Source of the DNA: Cenarchaeum sp. | GTDB taxonomy: Archaea; Thermoproteota; Nitrososphaeria; Nitrososphaerales; Nitrosopumilaceae | Assembly: GCA_963692915.1 (NCBI GenBank) | Contig: OY843584.1 | Location: 1,408,001 to 1,472,000, forward strand | Reading direction: 5' to 3' | Length of the DNA stretch: 64,000 nucleotides | Part shown: one piece after another, positions 9,101 to 54,323 of the stretch | Position numbering within the stretch: position 1 is the first letter of the stretch | Layout of the letters: each line of letters opens with the position of its first letter | Notes under the pieces: generated by a model | What the model was told of the DNA's origin: nothing | Seen by the model: only the letters and a program-made list of their open reading frames with translations | Database searches by the model: none | Translations under genes and position numbers: made by a program

Positions 9101-9563
9101 TCGGGCCGGCGATCGAGAGTGAGAGGTATTCGGAGCCGTCTCTGTTCCTTTTTATGGAAATGTCGGCAATTCCTTGGAGCGGGGCGATCGTGACGCCCTC
9201 GGTCACCGTGGCCAGGCCCACACGTACGGCCCTGTCGAGGCGGTCTATGAGCTCCGAGCCCTCAGGCATGTGGCTTCCCAGGGCGATCTCGTGCGCTATG
9301 ATGAGGGCCGCGTGCTCCTTGCCCTTCTCGGCGAGGAGGCCCCTCAGGCGGTCAGCGACGTCAATGTCGAGCATCTTTGAGACGCGGTCGGCCAGGTCAT
9401 GGGCCAGGAGCGCATCTATCTTGGGCGTAGAGTCGGCCATGGAGTTTTTGGCCTCCCTGGCGTGGGCTAGTGCGCGATCGGTCTCGGCGACAAGGGAGTC
9501 ATAGTAGGCGCGGTAGTGGGGCGGCATCTCCGGACCGCCTAGTGAGACTGCCGTGCTAGGCAC
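6171..9563 (-). CDS. polC: DNA polymerase D large subunit (DP2)
   Basis: AGPMRSAGGT, GGFRLRYGR, RMGRPEKA, AKRRDADGDAD catalytic motif, Zn fingers; no intein evident. Confidence 0.97.
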   Translation of the reverse strand: MPSTAVSLGGPEMPPHYRAYYDSLVAETDRALAHAREAKNSMADSTPKIDALLAHDLADRVSKMLDIDVADRLRGLLAEKGKEHAALIIAHEIALGSHMPEGSELIDRLDRAVRVGLATVTEGVTIAPLQGIADISIKRNRDGSEYLSLSIAGPMRSAGGTESAVTMLIADHVRQAANLAKYKANSFDDESGRFVEELRIYEREASNFQYRVVDEDIVKVITNLPVELDGVDTDSYEVVNHKGMARIKTDRVRGGALRVLNDGLIGRSKKLLQRVERYGISGWEWLGELKGAEAKLGAEDEDDTAAMKRMREVITGRPVLSKPNTLGGFRLRYGRACNTGFTSVGLHPAVAEILDHAIAVGTQVKTDVPGKGATVAFVDSIEAPTVRLKGGDVIKVRDAAHGMSIKTEIDEILHLGDILVSFGDFVENSAQMPPSGYVEEWWVAELRERLGEEAAGPILAAGRPTLEAALEISRSSGMPLHPAYLHYWEAVSVEGLETLLSPESRAEGRIVYGPAAKKILERLAVPHRNDDGRCVLEGDEADIFEALLFSSRPDAGAAGGVIGAITAASGIEIRPKFSTSVGVRMGRPEKAAARKMKPPAHVLFPVGDDGGPTRSIAKAAVAKEEFYADLSNRTCEECGEASVSTRCECGGATKITRRCGRCGTETDEERCSRCKRKTISHAHRRYPLKRVLAAAQERVRTRAREPLKGVTSLAGHGKVAEPIEKGLLRQAHDLNAFKDGTVRYEATNAPLTHFRPEWAGVSPARLRELGYEKDTSGRPLTEPSQLVELFTQDAIIPDGAADYLLRACQYVDAELERLYGAKAYYGAKTKDDLVGHIIVGLAPHTSVGIVTRVVGFAATHVCLGTPNWHSAKRRDADGDADALMMLMDVFLNFSRQFLSDRIGGLMDAPLLIQPRVLPHEAQSQAHNLEVVDSLPLEFFEETLKAPKATDVKCIETVKSRIGKASQYGGYAFTHETTSLVTSRLRSAYSTLNSMDEKLEMQIRVADLINAVDTSEIVSNVISTHLIPDLTGNLRAYATQEFRCTKCGTKYRRVPLARKCINTVNGKHCSNELIATITRPSVEKYLKMATRLVDAYDVGSYLRGRIYMMASEIDLVFGSASGDQTVLADYA

Positions 9564-10323
9564 GCCTGCCCCCAGAGCCGAGCGCGCGGGCGATCGCCGA
9601 GAGGCGCCTCAGGCCCGATGCGCCAGAGCCCTCCAGGAGCGTCCCTATGACGAGGGCGTCGGCTCCGGCGTCGGCTAGCAGGCGCGCCGTCTTTGCGTCG
9701 CGGATGCCCCCGCCGACTATGATAATCCCGTCAAAGACCCCCCTGACGGCCTTGACCATCGAGGCCTCCACGCTCCTCTTGGCGCCTGATCCGGCCTCGA
9801 GATACACGAGGCGCATTCCCAGAAACTTGGCCGCTAGCGCGTATGCGGCAGCGATGCGAGGCTTGTCGTGGGGGATGCCTCGAGCCGAGCCGACAAACCA
9901 CGCAGACGTCCCCTCGCCCACGACGAGGTACGCCGTCGGCAGCGCCTCGAGGCCAAACTTTAGGACGCTCGGCGCGCCGAGGGCCTGGGCCTGCGTGATA
10001 AAGTAGGGGTTCTCCGAGTTCATCAGCGAGCTGAACAGTATCGCGTCGGCCTCTGGAACGACGCCGGTGACGTTGCCGGGAAAGAGGATGACGGGGATCT
10101 TTGTGGCCGCCTTTATGGAGCTGACCGTCTGCGCCATGCCCATCTGGTCCGTCGCCGAGGAGCCGCCCACGAGGATTGCCGAGGCGCCGAGGCGCTCGGC
10201 CTCCGAGGCCAGCCGTGCTGCCTCCTTGCCGTCAGAGGACTCCGAGTCGACTAGAACCAGGATCGCCGCGCGTGCGCGCTTGGCCTGCTCGCCAAGGTAT
10301 CGCTCGGTGCGCCCCACGGTCAT
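9556..10323 (-). CDS. Geranylgeranylglyceryl phosphate synthase
   Basis: ILVGGS, ILFPGN, YLEAGSGA, VGGGIR motifs; start MTVGRTE at 10323 (the longer track ORF runs into the IS). Confidence 0.92.
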   Translation of the reverse strand: MTVGRTERYLGEQAKRARAAILVLVDSESSDGKEAARLASEAERLGASAILVGGSSATDQMGMAQTVSSIKAATKIPVILFPGNVTGVVPEADAILFSSLMNSENPYFITQAQALGAPSVLKFGLEALPTAYLVVGEGTSAWFVGSARGIPHDKPRIAAAYALAAKFLGMRLVYLEAGSGAKRSVEASMVKAVRGVFDGIIIVGGGIRDAKTARLLADAGADALVIGTLLEGSGASGLRRLSAIARALGSGGRRA

Positions 10324-10375
10324 CGGCGCCGCGCCGTGGGGCTCTGCTTTAAAGTCTAATCCACCGCCCGTGGTA

Positions 10376-11471
10376 TGTGCCTTGTACGAAAAGTAGTAGA
10401 CTGGGCAGGAATGCTTGCCGGGCGCAGATCCGGGAGCCCCGGGGGCGCCCCGGGATCCGGCAGGCTGCCGAAACATACGTTTGGGGGGCTCCGCCGCCGG
10501 CGCGCCATGCCGGTCAGGAGGCTTGACGACAGGGCGCTCCGGTACGTGGCCAGGACGCTGGCGACGCGGAGCGCCGAGGAGGTGGCGCGCGAGCTGGGGA
10601 TCTCCAGGGCGTGGTCGTACAGGCTTCGCGCGCACTGCCGGCGCACCGGCGCGCCGCCGGAGCCGCGGCCGATGGGAAGGCCGCGCAGGGACGTCACCGA
10701 CGGCGAGGTGGCCGAGGTCCTCGGCGAGCACGCCGACCGGCCGGCCGGCGTCGTGCGCGTGGCCGAGGGGCTGCGCGGCAACAACTCAAAAATAACGTAC
10801 TGGTCGGTGTACCGCATCATGCTGGCGGAGGGGCTCGTCACGAGGTCGCGGGCGAAGTCGCGCAGGCGAAAGTGGGTCAGGTTCGAGCGCGCGCACTCCG
10901 GCGCGCTGTGGCACGTGGACTGGCACATAATGAAATACGGGCCACTTGCGGGCTCGCACCTCATAGTGTTCCTCGACGACGCGTCGCGGTGCGTCACGGG
11001 CTTTGGCGTGTTCGCCGAGGCCACGTCGGAAAACTCCGTGCTTGCGCTGCGAAAGGCGATCAGGATGTTTGGCGCGCCGGCGCAGATCCTCTCGGACCAC
11101 GGCACGCAGTTCACGGCAAGCCGGCGCGGCACGCCGAGCCGCAGCTGGACGCCGACGCTCTTCGAGCGGGAGCTGCTGGACCGCGACATAGCGCACCTCA
11201 TGGCGCGCGTCCGCCACCCCCAGACCAACGGCAAGGTCGAGAGGTTCTTCCAGACGCTCGAGACGGAGATCGGCCACTTTGGCGGGGTCCCCGAGTTCAT
11301 CGCGTACTACAACGAGAGGCGCCTCCACTTCGCCCTGGACATCAAGGGCGGCGAGACGCCCCTGCTGGCCTACAGGAGGCGCAGGGCCGACGGGCGGGTC
11401 CGGGCGGAGAACCCGAGGTGGATGGAGGTGGACTCGAATGAGTGAGTCTACTACTTTTCGTATAAAACACA
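10376..11471 (+). mobile_element. IS481-family insertion sequence, apparently intact
   Basis: 27-bp TIRs tgtgccttgtacgaaaagtagtagact (10376-10402) and agtctactacttttcgtataaaacaca (11445-11471), 3 mismatches, TGT...ACA ends; 12-bp direct repeat ccgcccgtggta at 10364-10375 and 11472-11483. Confidence 0.92.
10507..11445 (+). CDS. IS481-family DDE transposase (HTH + rve integrase core)
   Basis: N-terminal HTH VARELGISRAWSYR; DDE triad in WHVDWH, LSDHGTQF, HPQTNGKVERFF; YYNERRLH. Confidence 0.92.
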   Translation: MPVRRLDDRALRYVARTLATRSAEEVARELGISRAWSYRLRAHCRRTGAPPEPRPMGRPRRDVTDGEVAEVLGEHADRPAGVVRVAEGLRGNNSKITYWSVYRIMLAEGLVTRSRAKSRRRKWVRFERAHSGALWHVDWHIMKYGPLAGSHLIVFLDDASRCVTGFGVFAEATSENSVLALRKAIRMFGAPAQILSDHGTQFTASRRGTPSRSWTPTLFERELLDRDIAHLMARVRHPQTNGKVERFFQTLETEIGHFGGVPEFIAYYNERRLHFALDIKGGETPLLAYRRRRADGRVRAENPRWMEVDSNE

Positions 11472-11481
11472 CCGCCCGTGG

Positions 11482-11591
11482 TATGAGGCCAGCGCCTCTG
11501 CCAGTTCATGCCTAGACAGGCGCCGAAGTGGCAAGTAGATCGACAGAATGCGCCTATTTGGCCAAAAGGGGTGGGGGGTGCTGGCCTCATA
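11482..11591. mobile_element. 110-bp MITE-like element, copy 1
   Basis: TIRs tatgaggccagc / gctggcctcata; flanked by ccgcccgtgg at 11472-11481 and 11592-11601; interior homologous to 62335-62445. Confidence 0.8.
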
Positions 11592-11603
11592 CCGCCCGTG
11601 GGG

Positions 11604-11708
11604 CGCCCTGTACGAAGAGTAGGCTGGGTGCCTGCCTGGCGCAGATCCGGGGCTCCGTAAGGCCGCTGGGCGGGCAGGGCGCTGCCTTGTACGAAGAGTG
11701 GGCTGGGT
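11604..11708 (+). mobile_element. Two degenerate relics of the IS481 left end
   Basis: cgccctgtacgaagagtaggctggg...ggcgcagatccgggg and tgccttgtacgaagagtgggctggg resemble the IS left end tgtgccttgtacgaaaagtagtagactggg...ggcgcagatccggga. Confidence 0.65.
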
Positions 11709-11788
11709 GGGGGCTTTCCAGGCACGGTGTCCAGGATCGCCTTGCGTTCAACGTTTAATTGGCCCATGTCATACCGTTTTGTATAGCT

Positions 11789-12151
11789 ATGAGCGACCCC
11801 GAGTCACATGAGTTTAATGCCGTAATCAAGCATATTATACAAAAATCGCTGTTTACAGAGCGTCAAGTTCAAATTATTCTAAGACAGCGGCGACGCGCCG
11901 GGGTTGGTTTTGGCATAAGTAGAGGCGCGTATTACAGGCAGGCAAGCCAATCTAGGGACAAAATGGGGCGCCTCTACTATACGATCAGTCTTTTGTGGGG
12001 TCTTGGCGTTCTCGAGCCTCGTGACATTGATGTGATGTCTCATCTTGCAGAACAGATCAAAGGTCTCAAAGATAGTGATATTTTAGATGGTCGTGAGGAA
12101 GACATCACACAGGTACTTGACAAAATTGTCAGTCAGGCGTGCAATATGTGA
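11789..12151 (+). CDS. Origin-proximal hypothetical protein, probable HTH DNA-binding
   Basis: SLFTERQVQII...GISRGAYYRQ resembles a sigma-4/Tfx-like HTH; TATA-like tttaatt upstream. Confidence 0.7.
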   Translation: MSDPESHEFNAVIKHIIQKSLFTERQVQIILRQRRRAGVGFGISRGAYYRQASQSRDKMGRLYYTISLLWGLGVLEPRDIDVMSHLAEQIKGLKDSDILDGREEDITQVLDKIVSQACNM

Positions 12152-12899
12152 TATTGTGTATCACCCTAGCCACAAATATCGTGATTTTAAGGCGTGATGT
12201 AGTTGTCTAAATAGTGAATTTATGTTGTTCTATCACAATATATCACAGTGTGTTTGTGACTTGCCCATGCAGGTCGAGATTCCCGACCCCAACGTCCTTC
12301 TTGGGCTGGTCACGGCGTTTGTGATCGGCCTTTTAGTCATAATTATACTCAACAAGGTGCGTCCATACGTGAATTTGAGCCCAAGGGGCGACGGAGAGTG
12401 GCGCGCCTCGCGTATTGACGAGTACGAGCGCCAGTTGGTAGAGATGAAAATTCGTCTAGACGCAGCAGGTATTGGGAGTGTGGGTGGTGATGTGACTAGT
12501 ATATCACAAGATGTTGTGGGGACGGCAGAGTCCGGATTGGAGACTGCCGTGGTTGACCAAAACAAGGCTAAAACTACGCCTAAATCACCCCAACAACCAA
12601 CGCCGGTGGCTCAAGAGACCAATCACGTCACATATCACAACGCCACAGAGCAGGTGTTACATATGGTCACAACAAGTGCAAAAACATCACGTGATATTCA
12701 AGCCGCCCTGGGTAAGAGTAGGGAGCACACTGCCAGACTCCTCAAAAAACTCTATGATGAGGGACTTGTTGAAAGGAACGCAAAGTCGCGGCCATACACC
12801 TACTCTATCACGGAAAGTGGCCAAAGGCGGCTTGGATCTGCAGACGGTCGGTTATAGAGCCCCTGTGGTGATGTTGGTTGTGGGTTGTGGTGATGTTGG
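12032..12899. repeat. Dense dispersed array of GTGAT/ATCAC pentamers
   Basis: 20 copies counted by eye between 12032 and 12894, including palindrome atcacgtgat (12686-12695) and direct repeat tgtggtgatgttgg (12864, 12886). Confidence 0.75.
12267..12857 (+). CDS. Membrane-anchored winged-helix DNA-binding protein (TM helix - coiled coil - linker - wHTH)
   Basis: N-terminal VLLGLVTAFVIGLLVIIIL; RIDEYERQLVEMKIRLD coiled coil; C-terminal TSRDIQAALGKSREHTARLLKKLYDEGLVER..PYTYSITESG (MarR/TrmB-like wHTH). Confidence 0.8.
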   Translation: MQVEIPDPNVLLGLVTAFVIGLLVIIILNKVRPYVNLSPRGDGEWRASRIDEYERQLVEMKIRLDAAGIGSVGGDVTSISQDVVGTAESGLETAVVDQNKAKTTPKSPQQPTPVAQETNHVTYHNATEQVLHMVTTSAKTSRDIQAALGKSREHTARLLKKLYDEGLVERNAKSRPYTYSITESGQRRLGSADGRL

Positions 12900-12954
12900 G
12901 TTGTAATGCGCCCAGGCCGATATTTTGGGCTGTGAATTGGTGGAATTGTAGGCC

Positions 12955-13020
12955 ATTTTATTATTATTTAATAAAATAATAAATTATAATATATGAGTAT
13001 TAATGATATATATTGTCAAT
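12955..13020. promoter_or_regulatory. Extremely AT-rich tract (possible duplex-unwinding element and/or promoter of the AbrB-like gene)
   Basis: attttattattatttaataaaataataaattataatatatgagtattaatgatatatattg, almost all A/T in a GC-rich window. Confidence 0.6.
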
Positions 13021-13036
13021 GTTTGGGGGGTTGCGC

Positions 13037-13177
13037 GTGTTGGTCAAGATCACCGCAGCCGGAACCATCACGATTCCGAAGCAGATGAGGCGGTATATGG
13101 ATGTGCGCCGTGGTGACTATGTAAAGGTCGATCTAGAGGGAGATCGCCTGGTTGTCACTAAGGCCGTGGTGTCGTAG
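13037..13177 (+). CDS. AbrB/MazE/SpoVT-family DNA-binding microprotein (46 aa, absent from ORF track)
   Basis: Manual translation MLVKITAAGTITIPKQMRRYMDVRRGDYVKVDLEGDRLVVTKAVVS* fits the swapped-hairpin consensus. Confidence 0.85.
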   Translation: MLVKITAAGTITIPKQMRRYMDVRRGDYVKVDLEGDRLVVTKAVVS

Positions 13178-13571
13178 GTGGCAGGCGTTGTGGGAGGATG
13201 GCCCTGTCGGCGGCTCTGTATGACCACTCGCGGCCGTTTCGTGTGCGTGCCAGACGGCCCCTGTGCGTAAAACGCGCCAGATAGGTCGAGATCACGCTCA
13301 GTTTTATGGGTCGGTTATACTCGTCCTCATACTTTTCGAGTATTGTGGAGGAGGTAAATCGGCCTATTGGGTAGTTCCTCTCAACTGTGGCCCATATGCG
13401 GCCCCCCACACTGTCAGGCGTCTGGCCTTCTGGGGGCGCCTCGACGTCAATGAGATTCATGGTCTCAAACACCTTTAGGATCTTCTCCCTAGTGACTTTG
13501 CCAGTCACGGTCATGCGAAAAACGGCCCCCTCGTCGTCCTCAACGTCGATGGTCACCTTTCTCTTTGCCAT
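13158..13571 (-). CDS. Origin-proximal hypothetical protein with C-terminal winged helix
   Basis: FTSSTILEKYEDEY..PIKLSVISTYLARFTHRGRLARTRNGREWSYR; divergent from cdc6 across the origin. Confidence 0.75.
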   Translation of the reverse strand: MAKRKVTIDVEDDEGAVFRMTVTGKVTREKILKVFETMNLIDVEAPPEGQTPDSVGGRIWATVERNYPIGRFTSSTILEKYEDEYNRPIKLSVISTYLARFTHRGRLARTRNGREWSYRAADRAILPQRLPPTTPRP

Positions 13572-13722
13572 TGGGACACAGCCTGAAACCCCCCTTACAC
13601 TTGAAACGATCCGATCAGATTTGTTAACGTTATACGTTGTTAATGTTGCCTGCCTAGCCTAGGCATGGGGTGCCGTGGCCTGTTCACACACTGCCGCCAT
13701 GCCCACCCCCAAATATCCCACG

Positions 13723-13813
13723 AATTCACGCCTAGAGTGGAAATAAGGGGGTTAAAATGGGTTGTTAACGCGGTTAAGATGTAAATTCACGCCTAGAGTG
13801 GAAATAAGGGGGT
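13723..13813 (+). promoter_or_regulatory. Two ORB-like origin recognition boxes (30-bp exact direct repeat)
   Basis: aattcacgcctagagtggaaataagggggt at 13723-13752 and 13784-13813; GTGGAAA core plus G-string; upstream of cdc6. Confidence 0.85.
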
Positions 13814-13900
13814 CAAAACGGCCTTTTTGGACGTCTTGTTCACACAATCTTGACTGTGTGTGAACGTCGTCAGGCTTCACGCCTCGCCGACTCCTTCCAC

Positions 13901-14021
13901 AACCCACACACCACCATTTCCACTCCTTTTTCTTTCATTTTTTTTCTAAAAATACAAGATAGAGATGAGATGAAAGGCAAGAAAAGGAATGTTGTGGAGT
14001 GGAAGGGAAGGTGTGTGGGTT
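13901..14021. promoter_or_regulatory. Inverted ORB-like pair flanking an AT-rich spacer (probable oriC core)
   Basis: aacccacacaccaccatttccactcc (13901-13926) vs ggagtggaagggaaggtgtgtgggtt (13996-14021), 22/26 inverted match, enclosing a 69-bp T-rich then A-rich spacer. Confidence 0.75.
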
Positions 14022-14103
14022 TGGATCACTGAAACGATCCATGTTGTTAAATTAAGCTGGGGGATCATTTCAAGAGGTAGGGCTACGACCCCACGATCTC
14101 AAA

Positions 14104-15321
14104 ATGAGCACGACCACACTCGACCCCCTAGATCGCCTCTTAGAGGCCGCAGAGAGCGGGACTGCGATCATACGCAATAGGGAGGTTCTGCGGTCTGACT
14201 ATATGCCAAAGATGATCAGGCACCGCGACGAGGAGCAAGAGCTAGTCGCCCAGACGCTCCTTCCAATACTAAAGCGCGCCCGCCCCTCAAACCTCCTAGT
14301 CTATGGCCGCCCTGGAACTGGCAAGACACTCGTTGTGAGGCGCGTCCTTTTAAAAATACAAGAGAGGGCCGCAACTGGCGACTTTCCAATCAGGCTGGTG
14401 TATGCCAACTCCAAGAACGAGACGACAATGTATGCGCTTCTTGTTAGTTTTGGCCGCCAGCTGGGCCTTAATGAAAAAAGGATTCCCACCACAGGCCTCT
14501 CAATAAGCGAGGTCTTTAAACGCCTAATCAGCGAGATCAACAAGAGGTCGATTAACGCCGTGTTTGTGATTGACGAGATCGACCACCTCGCGCGCCTCAC
14601 CTCCAAATCCCACAAGGACATACTCTACCAGATGACCAGGGCCAACGAGCTCCTTGATGGCGGCTCGCTCACCCTTGTGGGCATATCCAACGACCTCGCC
14701 TTCAAGGATGGCCTGGATCCGCGCGTGATCAGCAGCCTGGGCGAGGAGGAGATCGTCTTTGCGAGCTATACAACCGATCAGATACGCCGCATATTAGAGG
14801 AGCGCATTACCGACGCCCTCATCGGCCCCAACACCGTCGAGGAGGCCGCACTCCACCTCTGCGCAGCAAAGGCCGGCAGCGAGCACGGCGACGCGCGCCG
14901 CGCCATCGACACACTTCGTGTGGCCGCCGAGGCCGCCGAACGAGCCGGCGCGTCGACAATATCCCAGGACCACGTTCTCACGGCGGCAGCAAAGATGGAG
15001 GAGAGAAAAGAGGTTGCCGCGCTGCGCTCCTACCCGCTCCACGAAAAGCTCCTCGTCATAGCCGTGATGAAGTCCAGTGGGGCCTCGACGGGGGAGATAT
15101 ACGCCGCGTACCGCGACCTCTGCAGGCGCACGGGCCAAAAGAACCTCACACAGAGGCGGGCCACGCAGATGCTTAGCGAGATAGAGATGTCCGGGATAGC
15201 CTCTGGCCGGATCACACACCAGGGCATGCACGGCCGAACCAAAAAATTCAAGCTACTCGTCGCCACCGAGACTGTCACCGAGGCGTTCGGTGAGGATCTT
15301 GCCCTCTCTGACCTGCTCTAG
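14104..15321 (+). CDS. cdc6: Orc1/Cdc6 replication initiator
   Basis: HRDEE, Walker A GRPGTGKT, Walker B VIDEID, GDARRAID, C-terminal winged helix. Confidence 0.96.
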   Translation: MSTTTLDPLDRLLEAAESGTAIIRNREVLRSDYMPKMIRHRDEEQELVAQTLLPILKRARPSNLLVYGRPGTGKTLVVRRVLLKIQERAATGDFPIRLVYANSKNETTMYALLVSFGRQLGLNEKRIPTTGLSISEVFKRLISEINKRSINAVFVIDEIDHLARLTSKSHKDILYQMTRANELLDGGSLTLVGISNDLAFKDGLDPRVISSLGEEEIVFASYTTDQIRRILEERITDALIGPNTVEEAALHLCAAKAGSEHGDARRAIDTLRVAAEAAERAGASTISQDHVLTAAAKMEERKEVAALRSYPLHEKLLVIAVMKSSGASTGEIYAAYRDLCRRTGQKNLTQRRATQMLSEIEMSGIASGRITHQGMHGRTKKFKLLVATETVTEAFGEDLALSDLL

Positions 15322-40400: not shown

Positions 40401-43400
40401 CCCTGGCACTTATGAAATTACGGTGCATGGGGCACCTTCTCCCTCCAGGGCTCCCACACTTAGCCAAACGCGCTCATTCACGTACAACCCCTCCGGGCCC
40501 ACTTTTGATTACGTTACGGCGTCGCCTGACGGACGGACGCTCACACTGACGTTCAGCGAGGGGCTTGATGGCGACACGGTGACGCGAGATCGCTTTATGC
40601 TGGGATCAGGCATGTCGCTGGCCAGCGCAAGCCCCATTGTGCACGTTGACGGCTCTTCAACGGTGACGTTAAAGCTGGCCGCCGCGCCCGCGTCTGATGG
40701 AACATATTTTATAACTGCCAAGAGCACCATACGTGGTTCTGACGGCGGCTCGCTCGGCTCTGACCAGACGCGCAAGCTCGTGTGGAATCCCAAAGCCCCC
40801 ACGTTTGACCGCGTTGAGGTATCTTCTGATGGCAGAAAAGTCAAAGCAATCTTTAGTGAGGGTATTGATACCACATTTGTCAACACGCGTTACATAGAAC
40901 GATCACCTAGCTTGGCGCTGACCCGCACAAACCCCATAGAGCACACGCAAGGCTCTAACACAGTCACGTTCAATCTTGCCCAGACGTTGACGGGAGGTCC
41001 ACATTTCATAAGGGCCACACAGCAAATTGCCGATCTCACCGGTCTTCATATGACCACAACGCAGGAGCGTCAATTCACATTTGACGCGGCGGCTCCGGTC
41101 TTTGAGTCAGTCAGGGCGTCAGCTGACGGTCAGACGCTTACGTTGACGTTCAGCGAGGGCCTAGACACACGGACGGTGACCACCTGCGACACGGAACGAC
41201 AAGGCACGACATGCCCCCAAACCCGCCTGACTTCTGAAAGAACCTACGTCCCATCGATAACAACGGGCAACTTTGTGCTGCCCGCCGACTTGGCCTTCGC
41301 TAGGAGCCAAATAGGCTTGCAGTCGGTACTCCACGCAGACGGAAGTTCCACGGTCACCATCAGGCTATCGGCCGCGCCCTCGACTGGAGGCACGTACGAG
41401 ATAACGGCAAAGTCTGGCATCAAGGACACGACGAACGTTCCGCTCAGCTCTGACACGACGCGTTCGTTCACGTGGAATCCGGGCGTCCCGGCGCTAGAGT
41501 CAGCGTCAATGTCATCAAACGGCAAAACTCTCAAGCTGACATTCAGCGAGGGTCTTGACACCGATACTGTCACTGCGTCTAACTTTTTGCTGCCCTCAGA
41601 GAACACGCCGTTGCTTATCACAGAACAGGTAGCCAATAGCGAAATAGTCGTGGACACGGTTGCTCCTCGCTTGCTTGACGCGCTCTTCACGTCTACAGAG
41701 TCGGTGAGGCTGGAGTTCAGCGAACCCCTCGATGCCCTGACGGTCAAGCCGACGGCGTTTGGCGTCACGCGCGAGGGAGCCACAATCACCACCACACCGT
41801 CATACACGGCGGGCACGAGGGTAGTCACCCTTGACCTGTCGCCTGCAGTCACACCAGGCATCGCGCACACAATGCACGTAAAGGCCGGCCTCACTGACAG
41901 GGCAGGAAACCCGGTGGCCACCACGACAGAAACCCTGACGTCCCCGTCCACAGCCAACGAGGCGCCCATGTTTGAGGTAATACAAACAAGCCATTACATA
42001 GTCATCACGTTCAGTGAGGATGTTCGTGTTATAGAAGACCAAGAATTGGACTGGCGTGATTGGGCTGAGATCTTTGAAGGCGAACCTATCTCAAGACCAA
42101 GAGGCCACTTTGTTGATCTTGCCAACCGAAGAATTGTGCTGGATGATCGATTTTTTCCAAACACAAGTTTTGCGTTTTCTCCATACGTCGGAGACTCTCC
42201 CAAGATTGAGGATCTCTCAGGTTATGACATGCCTGTAGGAACCAAGATCAACAACCCGTCATTAGAGATATTTCCATCGATTTTTGCAGAGGCCTATGAC
42301 GAGGGCATAGTTAGAATAGAGTTTGATGAGAGTATCACCCGCACGATAGGGTATTCCCCCCGGGATATCAGTGCCGTAAGCGGCCGCACGGAAACGTCAG
42401 AGTGGGAGATTAACGGCGTGCAGGCCACCGCTATCATGGATAGCATAGATGGTGATATGAAACAAACTCTGAACGTGATGGAGATGACCCGCTTTTTTCT
42501 AAAGCATGGAGTAACGGGACTCGGGGGAACCCTACAGGTGGAATATCTTGGGCCCGGGGAAGGCAGCACCAACTCACTAACGAATTCTGACATGAACGCG
42601 CTTGCGCCTGTAAAGGTCACTAGTATAGACCGCATACCCAACGCCTTTACCGCAGGAGAGTTTTTGGACAGCAAGCGGATCAGGCTCACTGCCGCAAAGG
42701 CGATCGACGCACGCCTCGCAGACCACCTGCAAGTACCAAACATGCCATCTACCTTGATTCCCACCGACAGCCCACTCACGGCGATCCTGCGCCTAGAAGA
42801 TGACGCGCGGGACGGGTGCATATTTACCGTCAACCTCGCCTTTCCCCTAAATGACGAAGACGAAGACTATTATCCAGACTTTAGGATAAACGGCGGAACC
42901 AACAAGGTCACCTACACGGACACGCACGCGCCAATGATGGTCTCGGCCACGTCCACGAGCGGCACGACGACTGAGGTGCGCTTTAACGAGCCAGTCTCGT
43001 TCGGCGCGTCGCCGACGCTCGCACAGCACAGGGGCCACTGGGAGATCACTGACGCCGGCACGGACAAGGAGATCTCGGCGGTGGCCGTGAGGGCAGGCAG
43101 CCCGTCAGTCGTGGAGATCACGCACGCGCCGCTGGCGCGCACGGACTCCACGCCGACAGTCGCATACAGCGGCGGGGCAGACGACGACGCGCGCATCCGC
43201 GACACGCGCGCATCGCCCTGCACCACCACCGACAGCACGCCAAAGAACAAGCTGGGCACTGACGGCGAGGTCGTCGCGTCTGACGGCGCGGCGCCGGGGG
43301 CCGCGGTGTCGGCCGCAGTCTCCCGAAACGGGGAGCCAAAGTCCGGCACCAACGCACAGTGGGCAAGGGCAGGCGACACGATCACCGTGTCGCTGGACAT

Positions 43401-44280
43401 GGACGAGGCGGGCAGGCCGACGTCCCCGCCGCGCCTGGCGTCAGGCGGAACCAACACGGGAATGACATCCGGCATGGCATCAGACATGTGGTCAGGCGAG
43501 CGCACCGTGGCGTCTGACGAAACCCAGGGGCCGCTCGCCTTCACCATAACTGCGCTAGACGCGGCGGCCAATCTCGGGGTCTTTACGCACGCCGGCGCGA
43601 GCACAAACGCCATGGTGGACACCGTGGCGCCCGGCGTGAGCGGCGCAACGACTACTGGCCCGGCGACGACGCGCGTGACGCTCTCCGAGGGCGCCTGGGG
43701 AGTCGTGAGGGCGGCTGACTGGGTCGTCGGGGAGGCCGCGGGCACCGGCGTCGCCGTTGGGGAGGGAAGCGTGTTCACGCCGACGATCACCATGTCAGGC
43801 GGCACGGCGTTCACGCTACAGCACGCGATCCTGGCTGACACGGCCGCCGTGCCCACCGTGGCGTACAGGCCGCCGGGATCACCCGTTGCCGGGCCTGTGG
43901 GCGGCCCTGACGCGGCTCCGGGGCCGGGTCCTGCGCCAGACACGACTCCGCCGCCGCCAGCCCCGCCTGCGGAGCCTGACCCGCCAGCAGCCGGCATAGA
44001 GTTTGACATCGGGGGCCTTGACGGCGCGACGGTAAGGGCAGGCGAGGTGCGCTCGTTTGACGTCAGTGTCACGCGCGTGGATGGAGGAGGATTTGCGATA
44101 ATACTCCTCTCCGGCCAGCCGGACTTTGTGACCGTGCAGAACACGGACATCAACGAGGCCAAGATAACAGTAGACGCGTCACACGAGTCCGCAACGGCCG
44201 GCGCCCACACGTTCACCGTGATGGCCGCCACGGGATCCAGTCCGGCCTCCAAGAGCGCCACGATAACTGTGACCTCCTAG
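37483..44280 (+). CDS. Giant exported protein: HEXXH zinc-metallopeptidase domain + many Ig-like (Big_5/SwmB-like) repeats
   Basis: 2265 aa; signal peptide; LHEYGHH, AWSEGWASF, EGSVTAILWD; repeated S.DG.TLTLTFSEGLD units; Pro-rich linker. Confidence 0.85.
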   Translation: MTPTMKNVLLVIAAASLALVPLLSPLIHATPPAVPCDYECMWPIGLYDIPDSAKVGTPITVSYTYAWEGILNGIAVNTDTWDLPPGYHPWPEEWGEPTRPLQYIGSTATMVLPDGIDVVDWETRGFERSKLWTDQYGRTTYMYTRINAYAPGTTNSSIELVVRTDAKIYPNDDVIIDLGVRREKWADPTVFVNHSGGALTFSADEAAIAAGASESFQQRDIHRLPDSSFDPLEDEELSGEAKRAIVEFLLDQADAGAVVGESGVPDFARAQVAEHAKGSGVGGQADGEQFTYAYGYFRAQDRGQGAGVEAAKLSAATDVKVCIYDQAADRSISLLLHNGEPACSRVDSDGFYGIAVPRSDPDDDDTGIDIVPVFSLDHGKVRALTPRGTTMSVSGLVTENVNGAVVSLGEHSVRTPLGDTRQFAVMRWMYDDVLEAYGYFKDTFGYDAPPVTLQRGSSAFYVLSNSQITLQTGLPRPHAVATQTIVLHEYGHHIMNHVYDNGIPSTPLCSPHTPRLASSPSCAWSEGWASFVAALVEDSPRYNISFGADDNHFNWETQERHSRTNIEPPTGSLFIGNYYRGQDGEGSVTAILWDIYDDGNERGDNIAGGAQDIWTAFADDRDAGEAFEAVNIHDFYDDWIENGGQNLDSVFTINGVDPTGTYSPPSLTLSVERSGSMRTGDNSRYAKVGDTVIATLDLGGSVTMGTTPTASVLGGARENMVPGTGAARSTWTTRGTVGDDAHNGSSPVTILATAPGIALASTNAVSHDDESDTVSLALARVPTSGTYEITARGTIADSEGTSIGSDTLRRFEWNAANPRIERTAISPDGQEITFSFSEGLDAETVFPRSFRAFDRFDAVDIVHPDGSDTVKIQLSEPLIDGLYIIDPLTSIADTQGHRIDGGSAERILWDPQAPTFEHVTISPDGRTVTITMSKQITLTINNIIRDSDLPSHRKSPPFSTGTTHTISLASPPAPGTYEITVHGAPSPSRAPTLSQTRSFTYNPSGPTFDYVTASPDGRTLTLTFSEGLDGDTVTRDRFMLGSGMSLASASPIVHVDGSSTVTLKLAAAPASDGTYFITAKSTIRGSDGGSLGSDQTRKLVWNPKAPTFDRVEVSSDGRKVKAIFSEGIDTTFVNTRYIERSPSLALTRTNPIEHTQGSNTVTFNLAQTLTGGPHFIRATQQIADLTGLHMTTTQERQFTFDAAAPVFESVRASADGQTLTLTFSEGLDTRTVTTCDTERQGTTCPQTRLTSERTYVPSITTGNFVLPADLAFARSQIGLQSVLHADGSSTVTIRLSAAPSTGGTYEITAKSGIKDTTNVPLSSDTTRSFTWNPGVPALESASMSSNGKTLKLTFSEGLDTDTVTASNFLLPSENTPLLITEQVANSEIVVDTVAPRLLDALFTSTESVRLEFSEPLDALTVKPTAFGVTREGATITTTPSYTAGTRVVTLDLSPAVTPGIAHTMHVKAGLTDRAGNPVATTTETLTSPSTANEAPMFEVIQTSHYIVITFSEDVRVIEDQELDWRDWAEIFEGEPISRPRGHFVDLANRRIVLDDRFFPNTSFAFSPYVGDSPKIEDLSGYDMPVGTKINNPSLEIFPSIFAEAYDEGIVRIEFDESITRTIGYSPRDISAVSGRTETSEWEINGVQATAIMDSIDGDMKQTLNVMEMTRFFLKHGVTGLGGTLQVEYLGPGEGSTNSLTNSDMNALAPVKVTSIDRIPNAFTAGEFLDSKRIRLTAAKAIDARLADHLQVPNMPSTLIPTDSPLTAILRLEDDARDGCIFTVNLAFPLNDEDEDYYPDFRINGGTNKVTYTDTHAPMMVSATSTSGTTTEVRFNEPVSFGASPTLAQHRGHWEITDAGTDKEISAVAVRAGSPSVVEITHAPLARTDSTPTVAYSGGADDDARIRDTRASPCTTTDSTPKNKLGTDGEVVASDGAAPGAAVSAAVSRNGEPKSGTNAQWARAGDTITVSLDMDEAGRPTSPPRLASGGTNTGMTSGMASDMWSGERTVASDETQGPLAFTITALDAAANLGVFTHAGASTNAMVDTVAPGVSGATTTGPATTRVTLSEGAWGVVRAADWVVGEAAGTGVAVGEGSVFTPTITMSGGTAFTLQHAILADTAAVPTVAYRPPGSPVAGPVGGPDAAPGPGPAPDTTPPPPAPPAEPDPPAAGIEFDIGGLDGATVRAGEVRSFDVSVTRVDGGGFAIILLSGQPDFVTVQNTDINEAKITVDASHESATAGAHTFTVMAATGSSPASKSATITVTS

Positions 44281-52823: not shown

Positions 52824-53123
52824 TGTGTATAGTATAGGAGTACTAGTATATCAATGTGCCCTGCCGCTTGCGGCATGGCTGTGCTGGGCCGTTTGGGGGC
52901 TCTGGGCGCTCTGGCGAGGCTGGACGGCCCACCCAAGTCACAAATTTGGCACGGCCTCCGGCCTTCATCGCCAACACTGCCGCTCTTCCACACACCTATA
53001 GATATTAAAAACAAAACAAGCTGGATTTTTGTCATGGCACCTATTACAACGTCCGGCATTATCATCAACACGCCAATCGTGATTGAAAGCATAAGCAGCA
53101 CGAGCGTTCATGCGCCAGTCTAT

Positions 53124-53753
53124 TCATTCTACTTTGAAAAATCTTGCCTTTTGCAGCTCATCACAGATTTTTTCTATTTGCGATTTTGGAAATTTGTATT
53201 TGATGCGCCCTGCATGACCAATTAGATCTTTGACCGGCACGGAGTCATTCTTGTGCAAGTACACAAGTGTGCTTGCAACCTCCAACCAACCTACATCATT
53301 GTGTTGTTTTGCAAATTCTAAAAATTGCTCCTTTTCAATCCAATCTTTTAAGCCGCCATCTGGAGTGTCTTTTATATCTTGAATCCTGTAATAGTCATTT
53401 GCGAGTTCGGGCGAATATGGTCCATATATGTAGAGTGTATGCAAATAGCGAAATTCCAGACCAAAACATCGCTGTGCGAAATACGTGAACTTTTGTATTT
53501 TTATTCGTGTCTCTAGCTTGGATTTTCGTGGGTTGGTTCCACAGTCAATTAGATTGTTAGAATAGAGCAATTTCAAGAATGGCCCTATTCTGATGTCTGC
53601 CTTTCTAGCTAGATACTCGTCATAGAGACCTTGATACGACTTGTCAATGGCCGTCGGCCTTGTGGCAGTGTCTGGGCTACGGTGTTTCGCGGTTATGTCC
53701 TTCGACGTGAGGTGTAGCGCTGTGCGCACCCGCATACCTATATGCTCGCCCAT
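53124..53753 (-). CDS. YwgA/Panacea(SocA)-like antitoxin-type protein, low GC
   Basis: RIKIQKFTYFAQ...YIYGPYSPELA...WLEVASTLVYL motif set; AT-rich codon usage. Confidence 0.6.
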   Translation of the reverse strand: MGEHIGMRVRTALHLTSKDITAKHRSPDTATRPTAIDKSYQGLYDEYLARKADIRIGPFLKLLYSNNLIDCGTNPRKSKLETRIKIQKFTYFAQRCFGLEFRYLHTLYIYGPYSPELANDYYRIQDIKDTPDGGLKDWIEKEQFLEFAKQHNDVGWLEVASTLVYLHKNDSVPVKDLIGHAGRIKYKFPKSQIEKICDELQKARFFKVE

Positions 53754-54323
53754 CACAAAGCAAGTCAAAGTCCTATCATAATTTAAGTATTTAATTGAAC
53801 TTCAGATTTTCATGCATAGTTGTGCACAGTCTGAACAGAACTTGTGTTCTTAGCTACAGCACCCGATCATCTTGCGTGCTGTACCACGAACTCGGTCCTG
53901 GGACTTTGATGCCAAAAGCCCTAGAGCCCAAGCTGTCCAAACGATGCCATTGAGAACTTGATGAGCGCCACAGCATAATCTCACTTACACACACCTGTCT
54001 AGCACAGGGCTCGCCACATTCGAGACTGCGCGTAGTAAATGAATCGGGGTCGTACCACTTGACTATGGCGCGAATCATTGATCTTACGACTAGATTTCTT
54101 CAAATAATTTATTAAGTACACTGCACGATGCCTGATTCATGGTGTAGCCGGTCTGATGGCTATCCTAGGGCGGCGGGCGCGGCTGTAGAGCTGTACCGCC
54201 GTTCCGCACCCAAAACGACAAGATTGTGCAGCCTGCTCCCAGACCTTTTGTGGGGGCGGGTCAATGATCGCGCGTTGGACGCCGGGAACCGGTTATAAGC
54301 GGCGACGCAGGGCCGCCCACGCG

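Follow-up and report, generated by a model that had tools for sequence, protein, structure and literature searches.

The DNA analysed here carries an array of 20 short GTGAT/ATCAC sites that is real, unique in its genome, conserved over deep divergence and imposed on the choice of codons. The array is linked to a cassette of two small genes, called geneA and geneB below, and nearly always to the replication origin oriC and the initiator gene orc1. In our judgement there is an even chance that the ca 15–20 putative tGTGATdT sites over the cassette form an operator that may also serve as a centromere-like or origin-anchoring complex. The window, that is, the whole stretch analysed, comprises 64,000 nt (contig OY843584.1 of assembly GCA_963692915.1, positions 1,408,001–1,472,000 of the forward strand), and all coordinates of the array are window positions. 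The features of the locus are collected in Table 1.

Table 1. Features at and around the GTGAT/ATCAC array, in window positions.
Feature	Position	Strand	Basis or remark
geneA, 120 aa, 4 sites	11789..12151	+	orthologue alignment; structure model; TGA stop inside GTGAT
GTGAT/ATCAC array, 20 sites	12032..12899	.	regex scan; genome-wide maximum; consensus tGTGATdT
geneA–geneB spacer, 5 sites, incl. 10-bp-spaced pair ATCACaatatATCACa (12232, 12242)	12152..12266	.	14-spacer alignment
geneB, 196 aa, 9 sites	12267..12857 (ORF open from ATG 12222)	+	HTH_27; structure model
14-nt direct repeats TGTGGTGATGTTGG x2, 22 bp apart, one site each	12864..12899	+	genus-specific; 300-bp downstream counts
AT-rich stretch between geneB and AbrB-like gene	12940..13012	.	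strongly AT-rich; genome 59% GC
AbrB/MazE-fold small DNA-binding protein, 54 aa	13013..13177	+	MazE_antitoxin 33.3 bits; NCBIfam AbrB domain 37 bits
137-aa protein, weak C-terminal winged-helix signal	13158..13571	-	weak PaaX/Penicillinase_R hits
Two direct ORB-type boxes AATTCACGCCTAGAGTGGAAATAAGGGGGT, 61 bp apart	13723..13821	+	repeat search
Inverted ORB-like pair GGAGTGGAA...GGTGTGTGGGTT around 69-nt AT-rich element	13901..14021	.	kept in relatives
orc1/cdc6 initiator gene	14104..15321	+	Pfam Cdc6_C, Cdc6_lid, AAA hits

The array and its motif

The original prediction had listed 20 positions, and a regex scan of 12032–12899 returned the same 20, with zero missing and zero extra. Its details were likewise recovered, namely the palindrome ATCACGTGAT at 12686, which is the sole palindrome in the array, the 10-bp-spaced TATCACA pair at 12231/12241, and the two 14-mers spaced by 22 bp, at 12864 and 12886. 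Sites had been placed inside both ORFs and between them. Both genes and the spacer indeed bear them (one of the geneA sites lies across the TGA stop, and 2 further sites are downstream of geneB), but those at 12232 and 12242 belong to the promoter and not to coding sequence, because the start of geneB, judged from aligned orthologues, is probably ATG 12267 rather than 12222.

About 2 sites had been expected by chance. The mean over 5000 mononucleotide shuffles of the array is 1.74 (max 7); with 3000 dinucleotide-preserving shuffles the mean is 2.79 (max 10). The whole genome has 3266 sites in 1,644,826 bp, that is, a mean of 1.72 per 868 bp, and the array is its single maximum, with 20 per 868 bp. 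The following non-overlapping peaks have 10, 9, 9 and 8 sites, and no other genomic locus is thus close in density. Of the seven small clusters in the genome, defined by 4 or more sites within 120 bp, this locus has the two with most sites (9 and 5); in this genome (G000) the locus is a GC dip, or low-GC patch.

We have also examined two alternatives at the genome level. The next-best cluster (C1:1251791, 10 sites) was rejected as a second binding locus, since few of its sites fit the tGTGATdT flanks; it lies on a DNA-methyltransferase-like ORF, and 4 of its 10 sites read GTGATC/GATCAC. A KOPS-like polar word used throughout the genome was rejected as well, since GTGAT is not skewed between the replichores (848/828 and 821/769). 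For the 8-mer TGTGATDT, of which the genome has just 114 copies, the counts do reverse from one replichore to the other (47/20 vs 15/32). Within 100 kb on either side of the origin, the locus itself excluded, there is no excess of the extended motif, with 9 copies observed vs 13 expected.

According to a logo of 405 sites, taken from 29 orthologous loci, the motif is an asymmetric 5–8-mer, tGTGATdT. The base preceding GTGAT is T in 56% of the sites and G in only 8%, and for ATCAC the following base is A in 56% and the preceding base G in only 3%. Neighbouring sites in G000 are 5–166 bp apart, and the commonest spacings over the 29 loci are 9–13, 20–23 and 29–30 bp, not 7 bp. In 54 loci of the family the sites fall into two arms. 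On the left, between −200 and +200 relative to the geneA stop, sense-strand GTGAT reaches 4.0 sites per 100 bp; on the right, between +400 and +600, ATCAC reaches 2.4. The flanks have ca 0–0.2 sites per 100 bp, apart from one bin (−800) with 0.46. The conserved sites in geneA and most of the spacer are all GTGAT on the sense strand; an ATCAC pair stands upstream of geneB, and within geneB the N-terminal part has GTGAT and the C-terminal part ATCAC.

Codon choice and conservation of the array

When the synonymous codons of geneB in G000 are shuffled, 3.5 sites are expected vs 11 observed, and none of 1000 shuffles reaches the observed number. The same procedure gives 169 sites vs 66.4 for 29 orthologues of geneB and 106 vs 59.8 for 24 orthologues of geneA, and a null based on genome codon usage, applied to the AT-rich orthologues, gives 94 vs 26.7 for geneB and 63 vs 18.8 for geneA. 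The geneA of G000 taken alone is not significant (4 vs 2.4; 292 of 2000 draws reach the observed number). At the peptide positions compatible with the motif, the motif is present in 67 out of 142 for geneA (16.5 expected) and 94 out of 194 for geneB (26.3 expected), while the control gene orc1, with 28 out of 179 (24.3 expected), has no bias. The codon choice in geneA and geneB is thus biased ca 3.5–4 times towards the motif, and the enrichment survives mononucleotide, dinucleotide and synonymous-codon shuffles. The earlier suggestion that linker peptides are dictated by the motif fits these codon tests, and the linker sites are peculiar to the genus.

It should be pointed out that protein and DNA constraints are entangled here, because some of the counted sites fall on peptides that are themselves conserved (D-V-I-S, S-V-I, S-D-V, L-I-T, T-S-R-D and S-I-T-E); the palindrome, for example, sits in the geneB codons for T-S-R-D. 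The within-gene synonymous null is also raised already, to 2–4 sites per gene.

Of the first 30 orthologous loci, 25 have 11 or more sites per 868 bp, at GC contents of 0.23–0.60, and all of 30 further family loci bear the array (12–19 sites, median 17). The arrays span loci of 20–60% GC, and the low-GC relatives bear the same array. Loci of f15, f9 and f4, which are further families of the order, have 12–14 sites, and the array is also found in some families outside the class (14 sites in f27 and 12 in f41). In unbiased k-mer scans ATCAC is the top 5-mer, and it is still so in the sparse-array families of the order (71 vs 22.2). The relative G007 has 18 sites per 868 bp at the locus, vs a maximum of 6 in 11 blocks of 20 kb, and 7 of its 10 genome-wide GTGAT triplets are within the locus. 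One family (f21) has orc1 adjoining the cassette and zero array.

Since the enrichment withstands the shuffles, no other locus is equally dense and the orthologous loci carry the motif, there is good support for the array as a feature under selection at the DNA level. To this extent the original prediction of a protein-binding array running through coding sequence stands, while its label of centromere-like or nucleoid-organising is one that we only infer.

As to its position, geneB lies 0.8–2.1 kb from orc1 in 30 of the 33 relatives that have both genes on one contig, and the cassette is also near orc1 in some families outside the class. In two relatives they are separated: in G022 the cassette retains 18 sites at a distance of 59 kb from orc1, and in G011 it is 8 kb away with 17 sites. 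The array therefore follows the genes and not the origin when the two part, which fits a plain autoregulation at least equally well.

The cassette genes and the origin neighbourhood

The model of geneA is all-helical (pLDDT 80); in it, the N-terminal half resembles an HTH of the sigma-70 region 4 or LuxR kind and the C-terminal half a helical hairpin. The VIA Z values are 6.7 for the EsrB DNA-binding domain, 6.0 for EnfR and ca 5 for sigma region 4, which is below the safe level of the tool for helical models. A Foldseek search of the model against the PDB gave nothing at E <= 0.001 (best match E = 2.2), a profile search against the sequences of solved structures gave only one match, at chance level (E = 0.13), and a Pfam scan of 24 geneA members gave zero hits. 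One geneA cluster of a protein atlas has Sigma70_r4 on 14% of its members, with a score of 0.84. The gene is present in all 114 sampled family genomes, and of 33 pattern matches to geneA relatives in viral contigs none was confirmed. Its stop codon is spanned by GTGAT in 17 of 24 orthologues, and TGA is used in 21 of the 24.

The spacer between the two genes has the highest site density of all parts, with 83 sites in 2530 bp over 24 loci. An alignment of 14 spacers shows that the ATCAC-N5-ATCAC pair upstream of geneB is conserved and that the start codon of geneB is within GTGATG in 11 of them. The ATCACaatatATCACa pair is probably an operator at the geneB promoter.

The model of geneB consists of a TM helix (residues 8–31), a coiled-coil helix (43–66), a disordered linker (71–120) and a winged helix (126–193), and the protein is accordingly predicted to be a single-pass membrane-anchored DNA binder. 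Pfam PF13463 (HTH_27) matches residues 144–200 of the long geneB ORF with 28.9 bits, vs a cut-off of 22.2. The gene was found in 39 of 41 relatives, and its 3399 homologues are named only "winged helix/MarR". The predicted complex of geneA with the cytoplasmic part of geneB has a score of 0.00, which counts neither way. We have also considered naming the protein that reads the sites from the covariation of its helix with array density. Within the class, dense arrays accompany the geneA helix type GAYYRQ..QSR.K, f21 with its different helix has none, and the geneB helix SREH..R is invariant. Outside the class, however, the arrays of f27 and f41 coexist with the other geneA helix type. The approach is thus suggestive within the class and contradicted outside it.

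Between the cassette and orc1 are two further small genes, of which the AbrB-like one occurs in 19 of 30 loci, and these all belong to family f1, while the one for the 137-aa protein was matched by tblastn in 28 of the 30 and also in many loci at the level of class and phylum. The origin recognition box (ORB) that forms the direct pair of Table 1 recurs at most 700 bp upstream of orc1 in 21 of the 25 loci examined, and the 69-nt AT-rich element between the inverted boxes is the probable unwinding element of oriC. The orc1/cdc6 gene is the single match in the whole genome, and the cumulative GC skew peaks in the 10-kb bin with this locus. The cassette is ca 1 kb from oriC and orc1/cdc6, and the GTGAT sites are 0.8–1.9 kb from the ORBs.

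The array is not the origin itself, as canonical ORBs and an unwinding element are present separately at 13723–14021; the ORB core GAGTGGAAA with its G-string occurs there and is absent from the GTGAT array. A mobile element or foreign low-GC island was also rejected, as the cassette is syntenic with orc1 across the order. An rve transposase is located near the locus, at 10375–11445. Scans of the window for tRNAs and Rfam families found nothing, the ORFs of window positions 9556–15321 have zero Pfam hits to a ParA/MinD-type ATPase, and no ParB-type family turned up when geneA, geneB, the AbrB-like protein and the 137-aa protein were compared with Pfam.

Interpretation and comparison with known systems

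We infer that the GTGAT sites are bound by a protein encoded in the cassette, and either the HTH protein geneA or the winged-helix protein geneB would be the one that reads them. The sites at the geneB promoter, the geneA stop and the geneB start would then be operators through which the cassette regulates itself, and an array filled over its ca 850 bp would become a large nucleoprotein complex some 1 kb from oriC. With its TM helix, coiled coil and flexible linker of ca 50 residues, geneB could fasten this complex, and hence the origin region, to the membrane of the cell; it would then be a centromere-like device or an origin anchor. The proximity of the origin, together with two gene products of putative DNA-binding type, one of them predicted to be membrane-anchored, makes the centromere-like or nucleoid-organising idea more plausible; the original prediction mentions neither point.

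A simpler scenario, which we regard as somewhat unlikely, is that the array is purely an operator that auto-represses or times geneA and geneB, perhaps also their neighbours, and that its adjacency to oriC is inherited synteny. The best-conserved sites do stand at landmarks (the ATCAC pair 5′ of geneB, the geneB start and the geneA stop), the array stays with the genes when these are displaced from orc1 (G022, G011), and the rest of the origin region has no excess of the motif. Among archaeal HTH regulators, binding to the regulator's own promoter is common; EnfR, a solved fold match of geneA, is described in PMC10570040 as a repressor of this kind. For such a role, however, a few promoter sites suffice, and ca 15–20 of them over 850 bp, in two coding sequences and against codon preference, are unneeded. 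Plain repression would also leave the membrane anchor and the long linker of geneB unexplained, and the cassette is kept near orc1 in most relatives and in some families outside the class. It is improbable, in our view, that the array is instead a replication-control element, bound by Orc1/Cdc6 or another initiation factor, or titrating or sequestering it. Analogues of such an element are the datA/DARS clusters of DnaA boxes and the GATC/SeqA cluster of E. coli oriC. The distance of ca 1 kb to the ORB/DUE core and the sole orc1 gene is in line with this proposal, as is the reported occupancy of several kb around oriC by Pyrococcus Cdc6/Orc1 (PMC1904270). The sites, however, are without the ORB core, which has its own separate conserved arrangement, the array in G022 moves with geneA and geneB and not with orc1 and the ORBs, and f21 has orc1 beside the cassette and yet no array.

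The sense-strand GTGAT of all conserved sites in geneA and most of the spacer could point to a signal in the RNA, where GUGAU/AUCAC would be read by an RNA-binding protein or pair with the 3′ tail of 16S rRNA. The anti-Shine-Dalgarno sequence of this tail is ...AUCACC..., with which GGTGAT would pair. However, the base found before GTGAT is mostly T and rarely G, the opposite of what such pairing needs, both orientations occur within the would-be single transcript, and the window has no match to an Rfam family, which makes this explanation highly improbable. That the array has no function at all, being a by-product of amino-acid sequences, local low GC or chance, is barely credible. Several sites do ride on conserved peptides, the synonymous null is already raised, and the locus is low in GC in G000; but every type of shuffle falls short of the observed count, the codon bias of geneA and geneB is missing in orc1, the density is highest in the non-coding spacer, and the array persists from 20% to 60% GC.

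A broader version of the anchoring proposal is rather doubtful but worth stating, namely that the cassette is an unrecognised archaeal centromere and origin anchor, widespread in lineages of Thermoproteota without SegAB/ParABS. The tGTGATdT array would be the centromere, coated by a cassette protein, geneB would tether newly replicated origin regions to the membrane, and cell growth or Cdv-mediated division would then part the sister chromosomes. If true, the system would be ancient: ammonia-oxidising archaea would have it in common with other classes of the phylum, and its place beside oriC/orc1 would have been kept throughout. Leaving aside a paper outside our coverage that reportedly mapped the N. 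maritimus replication origin, the literature that we searched on thaumarchaeal origins, cdc6 and segregation does not describe the array or the cassette, and among the listed papers that combine GTGAT with Thaumarchaeota, judged by title and abstract, there are primer-type or unrelated matches only.

Ammonia-oxidising archaea are among the most abundant microbes of oceans and soils. For archaea that have a single chromosome copy, little is known of how origins are positioned and segregated (PMC5120986, "Outstanding Questions"). The locus is a testable candidate here, with a defined cis element, two small uncharacterised proteins, one of them predicted to be membrane-anchored, and a fixed position beside the single origin; its conservation extends over more than 100 genomes and past the limits of the class. 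As an operator and nothing more, it would still be an unusually clear example of a DNA signal that has prevailed for very long over the choice of codons in the two genes it overlaps, and it would delimit the regulon of a core transcription factor, so far unannotated, of ammonia-oxidising archaea. Together with the ORBs, the array provides a compact oriC marker for new genomes of the group.

Bacterial parS sites lie inside or beside parB/spo0J, near oriC. As in ParB–parS, the proposed arrangement is an origin-proximal cis site in or beside the gene of its presumed binder, nucleating a large complex (PMC5120986). In those systems parS is a 16-bp palindrome in few copies, whereas the GTGAT motif is asymmetric and in many, and ParB has a ParB/Srx CTPase domain and requires ParA, which the cassette lacks. 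In archaea, SegB of the SegAB system and the winged-helix protein AspA of the AspA–ParBA system bind sites just upstream of their own operons, which according to the authors are possibly centromeres, operators or both, and AspA spreads over more than 200 bp; the putative sites here similarly adjoin the genes of a presumed archaeal binder. These systems have one or two palindromes (23 bp for AspA) and include a ParA-type ATPase, and PMC5120986, from which this description is taken, reports them only for Crenarchaea and Euryarchaea. The array is also like ORBs and mini-ORBs in being a cluster of short repeats at an origin beside orc1/cdc6 (PMC4010727); ORBs, however, consist of the core GAGTGGAAA and a G-string around an AT-rich element, and the GTGAT sites have neither feature.

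Closer in motif is the omega protein of pSM19035, for which PMC9499535 describes arrays of WATCACW heptads, in both orientations, that are operator and centromere at once. Both cases have a non-palindromic ATCAC core with A/T-biased flanks, many copies in both orientations, and sites overlapping the promoters of their own genes. The heptads of omega are contiguous (7–10 in a row, with at least 4 gapless needed), whereas the GTGAT sites are scattered irregularly over ca 850 bp, mostly in coding sequence. Moreover, omega is a ribbon-helix-helix protein, while geneA is modelled as an HTH and geneB as a winged helix, and pSM19035 is a plasmid of Firmicutes, while the GTGAT array is on an archaeal chromosome with no ParA partner in the cassette. 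The shared ATCAC core is probably a coincidence.

For the proposed function, a comparable architecture is that of S. aureus RicO, in which a DNA-binding domain is joined to a coiled coil and a membrane helix; RicO binds origin-proximal sites and thereby ties the origins to the membrane (bioRxiv 10.64898/2026.03.06.710092). RicO has nine 18-bp sites over ca 700 kb, compared to one 0.85-kb cluster of 5–8-bp sites here, and its membrane element is a C-terminal amphipathic helix, while that of geneB is modelled as an N-terminal transmembrane helix. Binding and phenotype are measured for RicO, whereas for geneB both are proposed. The model of geneB does, however, combine the same three kinds of element in reversed order, and as for RicO and ricS the sites are confined to the origin-proximal region, where the proposed outcome would be the anchoring of the origin for segregation.

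The array and its surroundings in the source genome

The original prediction placed 20 GTGAT/ATCAC pentamers between window positions 12032 and 12899, and a regular-expression scan finds all 20 exactly there, together with the predicted palindrome (ATCACGTGAT at 12686), the 10-bp-spaced TATCACA pair (12231/12241) and the 14-mer TGTGGTGATGTTGG at 12864 and 12886, 22 bp apart. Shuffling of the 868-bp array yields 1.74 ± 1.31 sites (maximum 7; 5000 mononucleotide shuffles) or 2.79 ± 1.65 (maximum 10; 3000 dinucleotide-preserving shuffles), compared to the 20 observed. The source genome, a single contig of 1,644,826 bp and 59.4% GC in which the window is C1:1408001-1472000, holds 3266 such sites, on average 1.72 per 868 bp. 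The array is its sole maximum with 20 per 868 bp, the next non-overlapping peaks having 10, 9, 9 and 8. The oriented context GTGAT[AG]T is found at 13 of the 20 sites and 376 times genome-wide.

The second-densest cluster (C1:1251697-1252542, 10 per 868 bp) sits on an ORF with an SPPY motif, typical of N4/N6 DNA methyltransferases; GATC is contained in four of its ten sites, which read GTGATC/GATCAC.

The array overlaps two genes, geneA and geneB, together called the cassette. No Pfam or NCBIfam family matched geneA, its clusters are named only 'hypothetical protein', and a Foldseek search of its AlphaFold model (pLDDT 80, five helices) against the PDB gave no match at E ≤ 0.001. In the model, residues 19-79 superpose on helix-turn-helix domains of the LuxR/sigma-70 region 4 type with modest Z values (6.7 for the EsrB DNA-binding domain, 6.0 for the archaeal repressor EnfR, ca 5 for several sigma region 4 domains), and residues 76-120 form a helical hairpin. 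GeneB, whose probable start comes from alignment with orthologues, matches the Pfam winged helix HTH_27 (28.9 bits, threshold 22.2) and has 3399 detectable homologues, none named more specifically than 'winged helix DNA-binding protein' or 'MarR family'. In the geneB model, a transmembrane helix (8-31) is followed by a long helix (43-66), a disordered linker (71-120) and the winged helix (126-193). Basic residues flanking a membrane helix mark the cytoplasmic side (the positive-inside rule), and since such residues directly follow the geneB helix, the DNA-binding domain is predicted to be in the cytoplasm. All four small proteins of the locus (geneA, geneB, AbrB-like and 137-aa) are candidate DNA binders.

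Features of the locus, in window coordinates
Feature	Position	Description
rve-type (IS-like) integrase ORF	10375-11445	In DNA of very high GC, directly upstream of the cassette
Two 26-nt direct repeats	11605-11709	After the rve ORF; 79 bp apart, 92% identical
geneA	11789-12151	120 aa; overlapped by the array
geneB	ORF open from 12222	196 aa from ATG 12267 (probable start); overlapped by the array
AT-rich stretch	12940-13012	Downstream of geneB
AbrB-fold gene	13013-13177	After the AT-rich stretch
G/C-string pair TGTTTGGGGGGTT / AACCCCCCTTACA	13020-13032 and 13587-13599	Inverted; brackets the AbrB-like and 137-aa genes
137-aa gene	13158-13571	Divergent; weak winged-helix signal
oriC	13723-14021	
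Two direct 38-nt repeats	13723-13760, 13784-13821	Each with an ORB-type box; boxes 61 bp apart
Inverted ORB-like pair ending in GGTGTGTGGG	13901-13926 / 13996-14021	Around a 69-nt AT-rich element
orc1/cdc6	14104-15321	Initiator gene

The rve ORF and the repeats following it suggest that a mobile element has inserted beside the origin-proximal cassette in this genome.

The adjacent oriC was judged to be a complete, textbook archaeal origin, with origin recognition boxes (ORBs) and an AT-rich element just upstream of orc1/cdc6, the single Cdc6_C match in the whole genome. Cumulative GC skew has its maximum in the 10-kb bin holding the locus and its minimum near 630 kb. Should this be where replication starts, the leading strand would be rich in C, the reverse of the usual bacterial convention. 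The strand preference of the 8-mer TGTGATDT flips between the replichores (47/20 vs 15/32). From the positions of the origin elements, the array lies 0.8-1.9 kb to one side of oriC and is distinct from the ORB set. The inverted G/C-string pair may represent extra mini-ORB-like elements. According to reviews (PMC4010727; PMC5333045; PMC4164010), the typical archaeal origin has ORBs on either side of an AT-rich element and adjoins orc1/cdc6, and a single origin is present on the one thaumarchaeal chromosome that has been mapped.

The cassette and origin (12000-14000) form a low-GC patch of 46-51%, compared to 59% for the genome and 61-69% for the flanks. This locus seems to have resisted the drift of the lineage to high GC, as DNA-level constraint on many positions would lead one to expect. 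Two further kilobases of the window, 53001-54000 and 43001-44000, are also outliers in composition, one with 43% and one with 72% GC.

Anatomy of the array and selection on the DNA word

The motif derived from 405 sites at 29 loci is tGTGATdT, with T before the word in 56% of cases, C after it in only 3%, and then T in 58%. GeneA has six conserved positions, all of them sense-strand GTGAT (D-V-I/M-S, S-V-I, S-D-V/I, x-V-I, x-V-I-D and the stop codon). Two sense-strand positions are conserved in the geneB membrane helix (E-V-I-L and G-V-I-L), and those in the winged helix are mostly ATCAC (L-I-T, T-S-R, Q-I-T, H-T-S-R, S-I-T-E), an R-D-I position being the other half of the palindrome. Averaged over 54 loci of the source family, sense GTGAT between -200 and +200 of the geneA stop amounts to 1.0, 4.0, 1.6 and 2.3 per 100 bp, while ATCAC amounts to 0.9, 0.9 and 0.6 just past the stop and 0.6, 2.4 and 0.3 at +400 to +600; the flanks have ca 0-0.2, with one bin (-800) at 0.46. 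These profiles describe two arms, for the most part opposite in polarity, on either side of the variable geneB linker. Neighbour spacings cluster at 9-13, 20-23, 29-30 and 40-43 bp, which hints at helical phasing, but we give these peaks little weight, because the counts repeat inherited positions and multiples of three. The source genome and its genus have extra sites in the geneB linker (DVTSISQDVV, NHVTYHN) and the downstream 14-mers, which other genera lack, meaning that sites turn over while the array persists.

The original prediction proposed a codon-preserving shuffle as a check, and the geneB enrichment withstands it: the source gene has 11 sites compared to 3.5 in synonymous shuffles (0/1000 reach 11), and 29 orthologues have 169 compared to 66.4. 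For geneA, 24 orthologues give 106 vs 59.8, while the source gene alone is not significant (4 vs 2.4; 160/1000 shuffles reach 4). Since every gene keeps its own codon pool in these shuffles, the null is a conservative one. With genome-wide codon usage the values are 9 vs 1.95 for the source geneB (0/2000), 4 vs 2.4 for its geneA (292/2000) and 7 vs 2.05 for geneA of the relative G007 (0/1000). For all AT-rich orthologues, with codons drawn from G007 usage as a stand-in, they are 94 vs 26.7 for geneB (17 genes) and 63 vs 18.8 for geneA (14 genes). In G007, GTG makes up only 11% of valine and CGT 12% of arginine codons, yet these are the codons found at the conserved V-I and T-S-R-D positions.

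The cleanest control counts only peptide positions able to encode GTGAT/ATCAC. The word is carried at 67 of 142 such positions in geneA (16.5 expected) and 94 of 194 in geneB (26.3 expected), compared to 28 of 179 in orc1 of the same genomes (24.3 expected). The spacers between geneA and geneB contain 83 sites in 2530 bp (24 loci), or ca 3.3 per 100 bp where the background is near 0.2, and close with a conserved block, aaagtgtgaaattatgttgttc-ATCAC-aataa-ATCAC-a. Of 24 geneA orthologues, 21 terminate with TGA, and in 17 the stop falls within a GTGAT; GTGATG contains the geneB start codon in 11 of the 14 spacers aligned. The non-coding sites lead to the same conclusion as the codon tests, namely that the word is imposed at the DNA level and does not arise as a by-product of the two proteins.

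Conservation of the cassette and candidate reader proteins

Among 41 genomes, that is, the source genome and 40 relatives, geneB was found in 39 and orc1 in 38. By coordinate subtraction, the two are 0.8-2.1 kb apart in 30 of the 33 relatives that have both on one contig, the exceptions being G011 (8.0 kb), G021 (4.4 kb) and G022 (59 kb), and the pair straddles the numbering start in two further complete genomes. The displaced cassettes keep their arrays, with 17 sites in G011 (L069), 18 in G021 (L060) and 18 in G022 (L050, L022). In G022 the ORBs remained upstream of orc1 while cassette and array moved away; the AbrB-like and 137-aa genes were looked for at its cassette locus and neither was found. 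The ORB core of the source genome recurs in the 700 bp preceding orc1 at 21 of the 25 loci inspected. The oriC layout of direct ORBs, inverted pair and AT-rich element recurs in most relatives.

The array is retained at orthologous loci, also in low-GC genomes: 25 of 30 geneB-centred loci (GC 0.23-0.60) have at least 11 sites in their best 868 bp, and the other five have 5, 5, 5, 7 and 9. Thirty further loci of the source family have 12-19 (median 17). Other families of the order range from dense (12-16 in f15, f9 and f4; 11 in f2) to sparser arrays (9 in f6; 6-8 in f5, f7, f11, f13 and f14; 3-5 in f10, f12, f16 and f17). Family f19, of a different order, has 14, 11 and 9, and in f21 seven loci have 4-7 sites and the ATCAC signal is absent. 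At locus L128 (G144) the cassette is at the extreme end of a 2.74-Mb contig, so that its count of 6 cannot be read as absence, as the array may run on across the numbering start.

Unbiased k-mer counting over the 30 loci gives ATCAC/GTGAT as the commonest 5-mer, above AAAAA in mostly AT-rich genomes, and ATCACA as the commonest 6-mer; ATCAC/GTGAT is also the top over-represented 5-mer in most single loci. Counted in a fixed frame, ATCAC occurs 144 times vs 19.2 expected in nine loci of the source family, 134 vs 21.3 in ten dense-array loci of other families, and 71 vs 22.2, still the top word, in eleven sparse-array loci. In G007, none of eleven 20-kb blocks spread across the genome exceeds 6 sites per 868 bp, compared to 18 at its own locus. 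Triplets of GTGAT (three in one orientation within 30-bp gaps) number, in the locus and the whole genome, 7/10 in G007, 3/5 in G005, 3/11 in G016, 1/2 in the source genome and 0/8 in G038.

As for the protein that reads the sites, the AbrB-like gene was found at 19 of 30 loci, only within the source family, and arrays occur without it, while the 137-aa gene is present also at loci without arrays. At 20 of 20 class-level loci geneA and geneB are neighbours. Dense arrays within the class co-occur with a geneA helix G-A-Y-Y-R-Q..Q-S-R-x-K and sparse ones with G-S-F-x-R-T-L..Q-A..N; f21, without an array, has ..I-T-x-x-R-G, and the geneB helix S-R-E-H-x-x-R is unchanged throughout. This covariation suggested geneA as the reader, but it breaks down outside the class. 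There, with one locus taken from each of 20 other families of the phylum, ATCAC is the top 5-mer in f27 (14 sites) and f41 (12) and gives a weaker signal in f36 (9), f62 (8) and f56 (8), all five having 'S-F-N-R-T-L'-type geneA helices; the remaining loci have 0-6 sites. GeneB is downstream on the same strand in 12 of the 20, and orc1 adjoins in at least five, f27 and f41 included. The outside-class arrays indicate that the cassette and its word predate the class.

Possible roles and relation to known systems

We consider it very likely that the array is a selected, DNA-level protein-binding array. A cassette-encoded protein would bind the sites, those at the geneB promoter, the geneB start and the geneA stop acting as operators, and the filled array would form a larger nucleoprotein complex. 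Such a complex is suggested by the retention, in spite of codon preference, of ca 15-20 sites within two genes, a feature that also speaks against the array being an operator only. This simpler alternative agrees with the array staying with its genes where orc1 synteny is broken, as a plain autoregulatory array would, and we regard it as possible, though doubtful. The combined reading, operator plus origin complex, has in our judgement about an even chance.

The centromere-like, nucleoid-organising role of the original prediction gains from the position of the array at oriC and from the geneB membrane anchor, and loses from the absence of a partition ATPase in the cassette. An origin-organising or anchoring function is attractive given this anchor, the geneB coiled coil and ca 50-residue linker, and the near-invariant position ca 1 kb from oriC. 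It is weakened by the lack of motif enrichment elsewhere near the origin and by the array following its genes where orc1 synteny is broken. That the array is a replication-control element appears unlikely, and an RNA-level signal, or an array without function, would each be quite improbable.

Full-text literature searches turned up no account of either the array or the cassette. Omega/WATCACW arrays (PMC9499535) combine operator and centromere in one and are a precedent for the proposed dual role, RicO/ricS (bioRxiv 10.64898/2026.03.06.710092) offers one for tying origins to the membrane, and the sites of SegB and AspA, which lie upstream of the operons encoding them (PMC5120986), offer one for sites at own genes. 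As a kind of element, clusters of short binding sites serving as operator and centromere at once, or placed at an origin, are already known; novelty lies in the proteins, in the word being written through two genes, in the membrane anchor and in the lineage.
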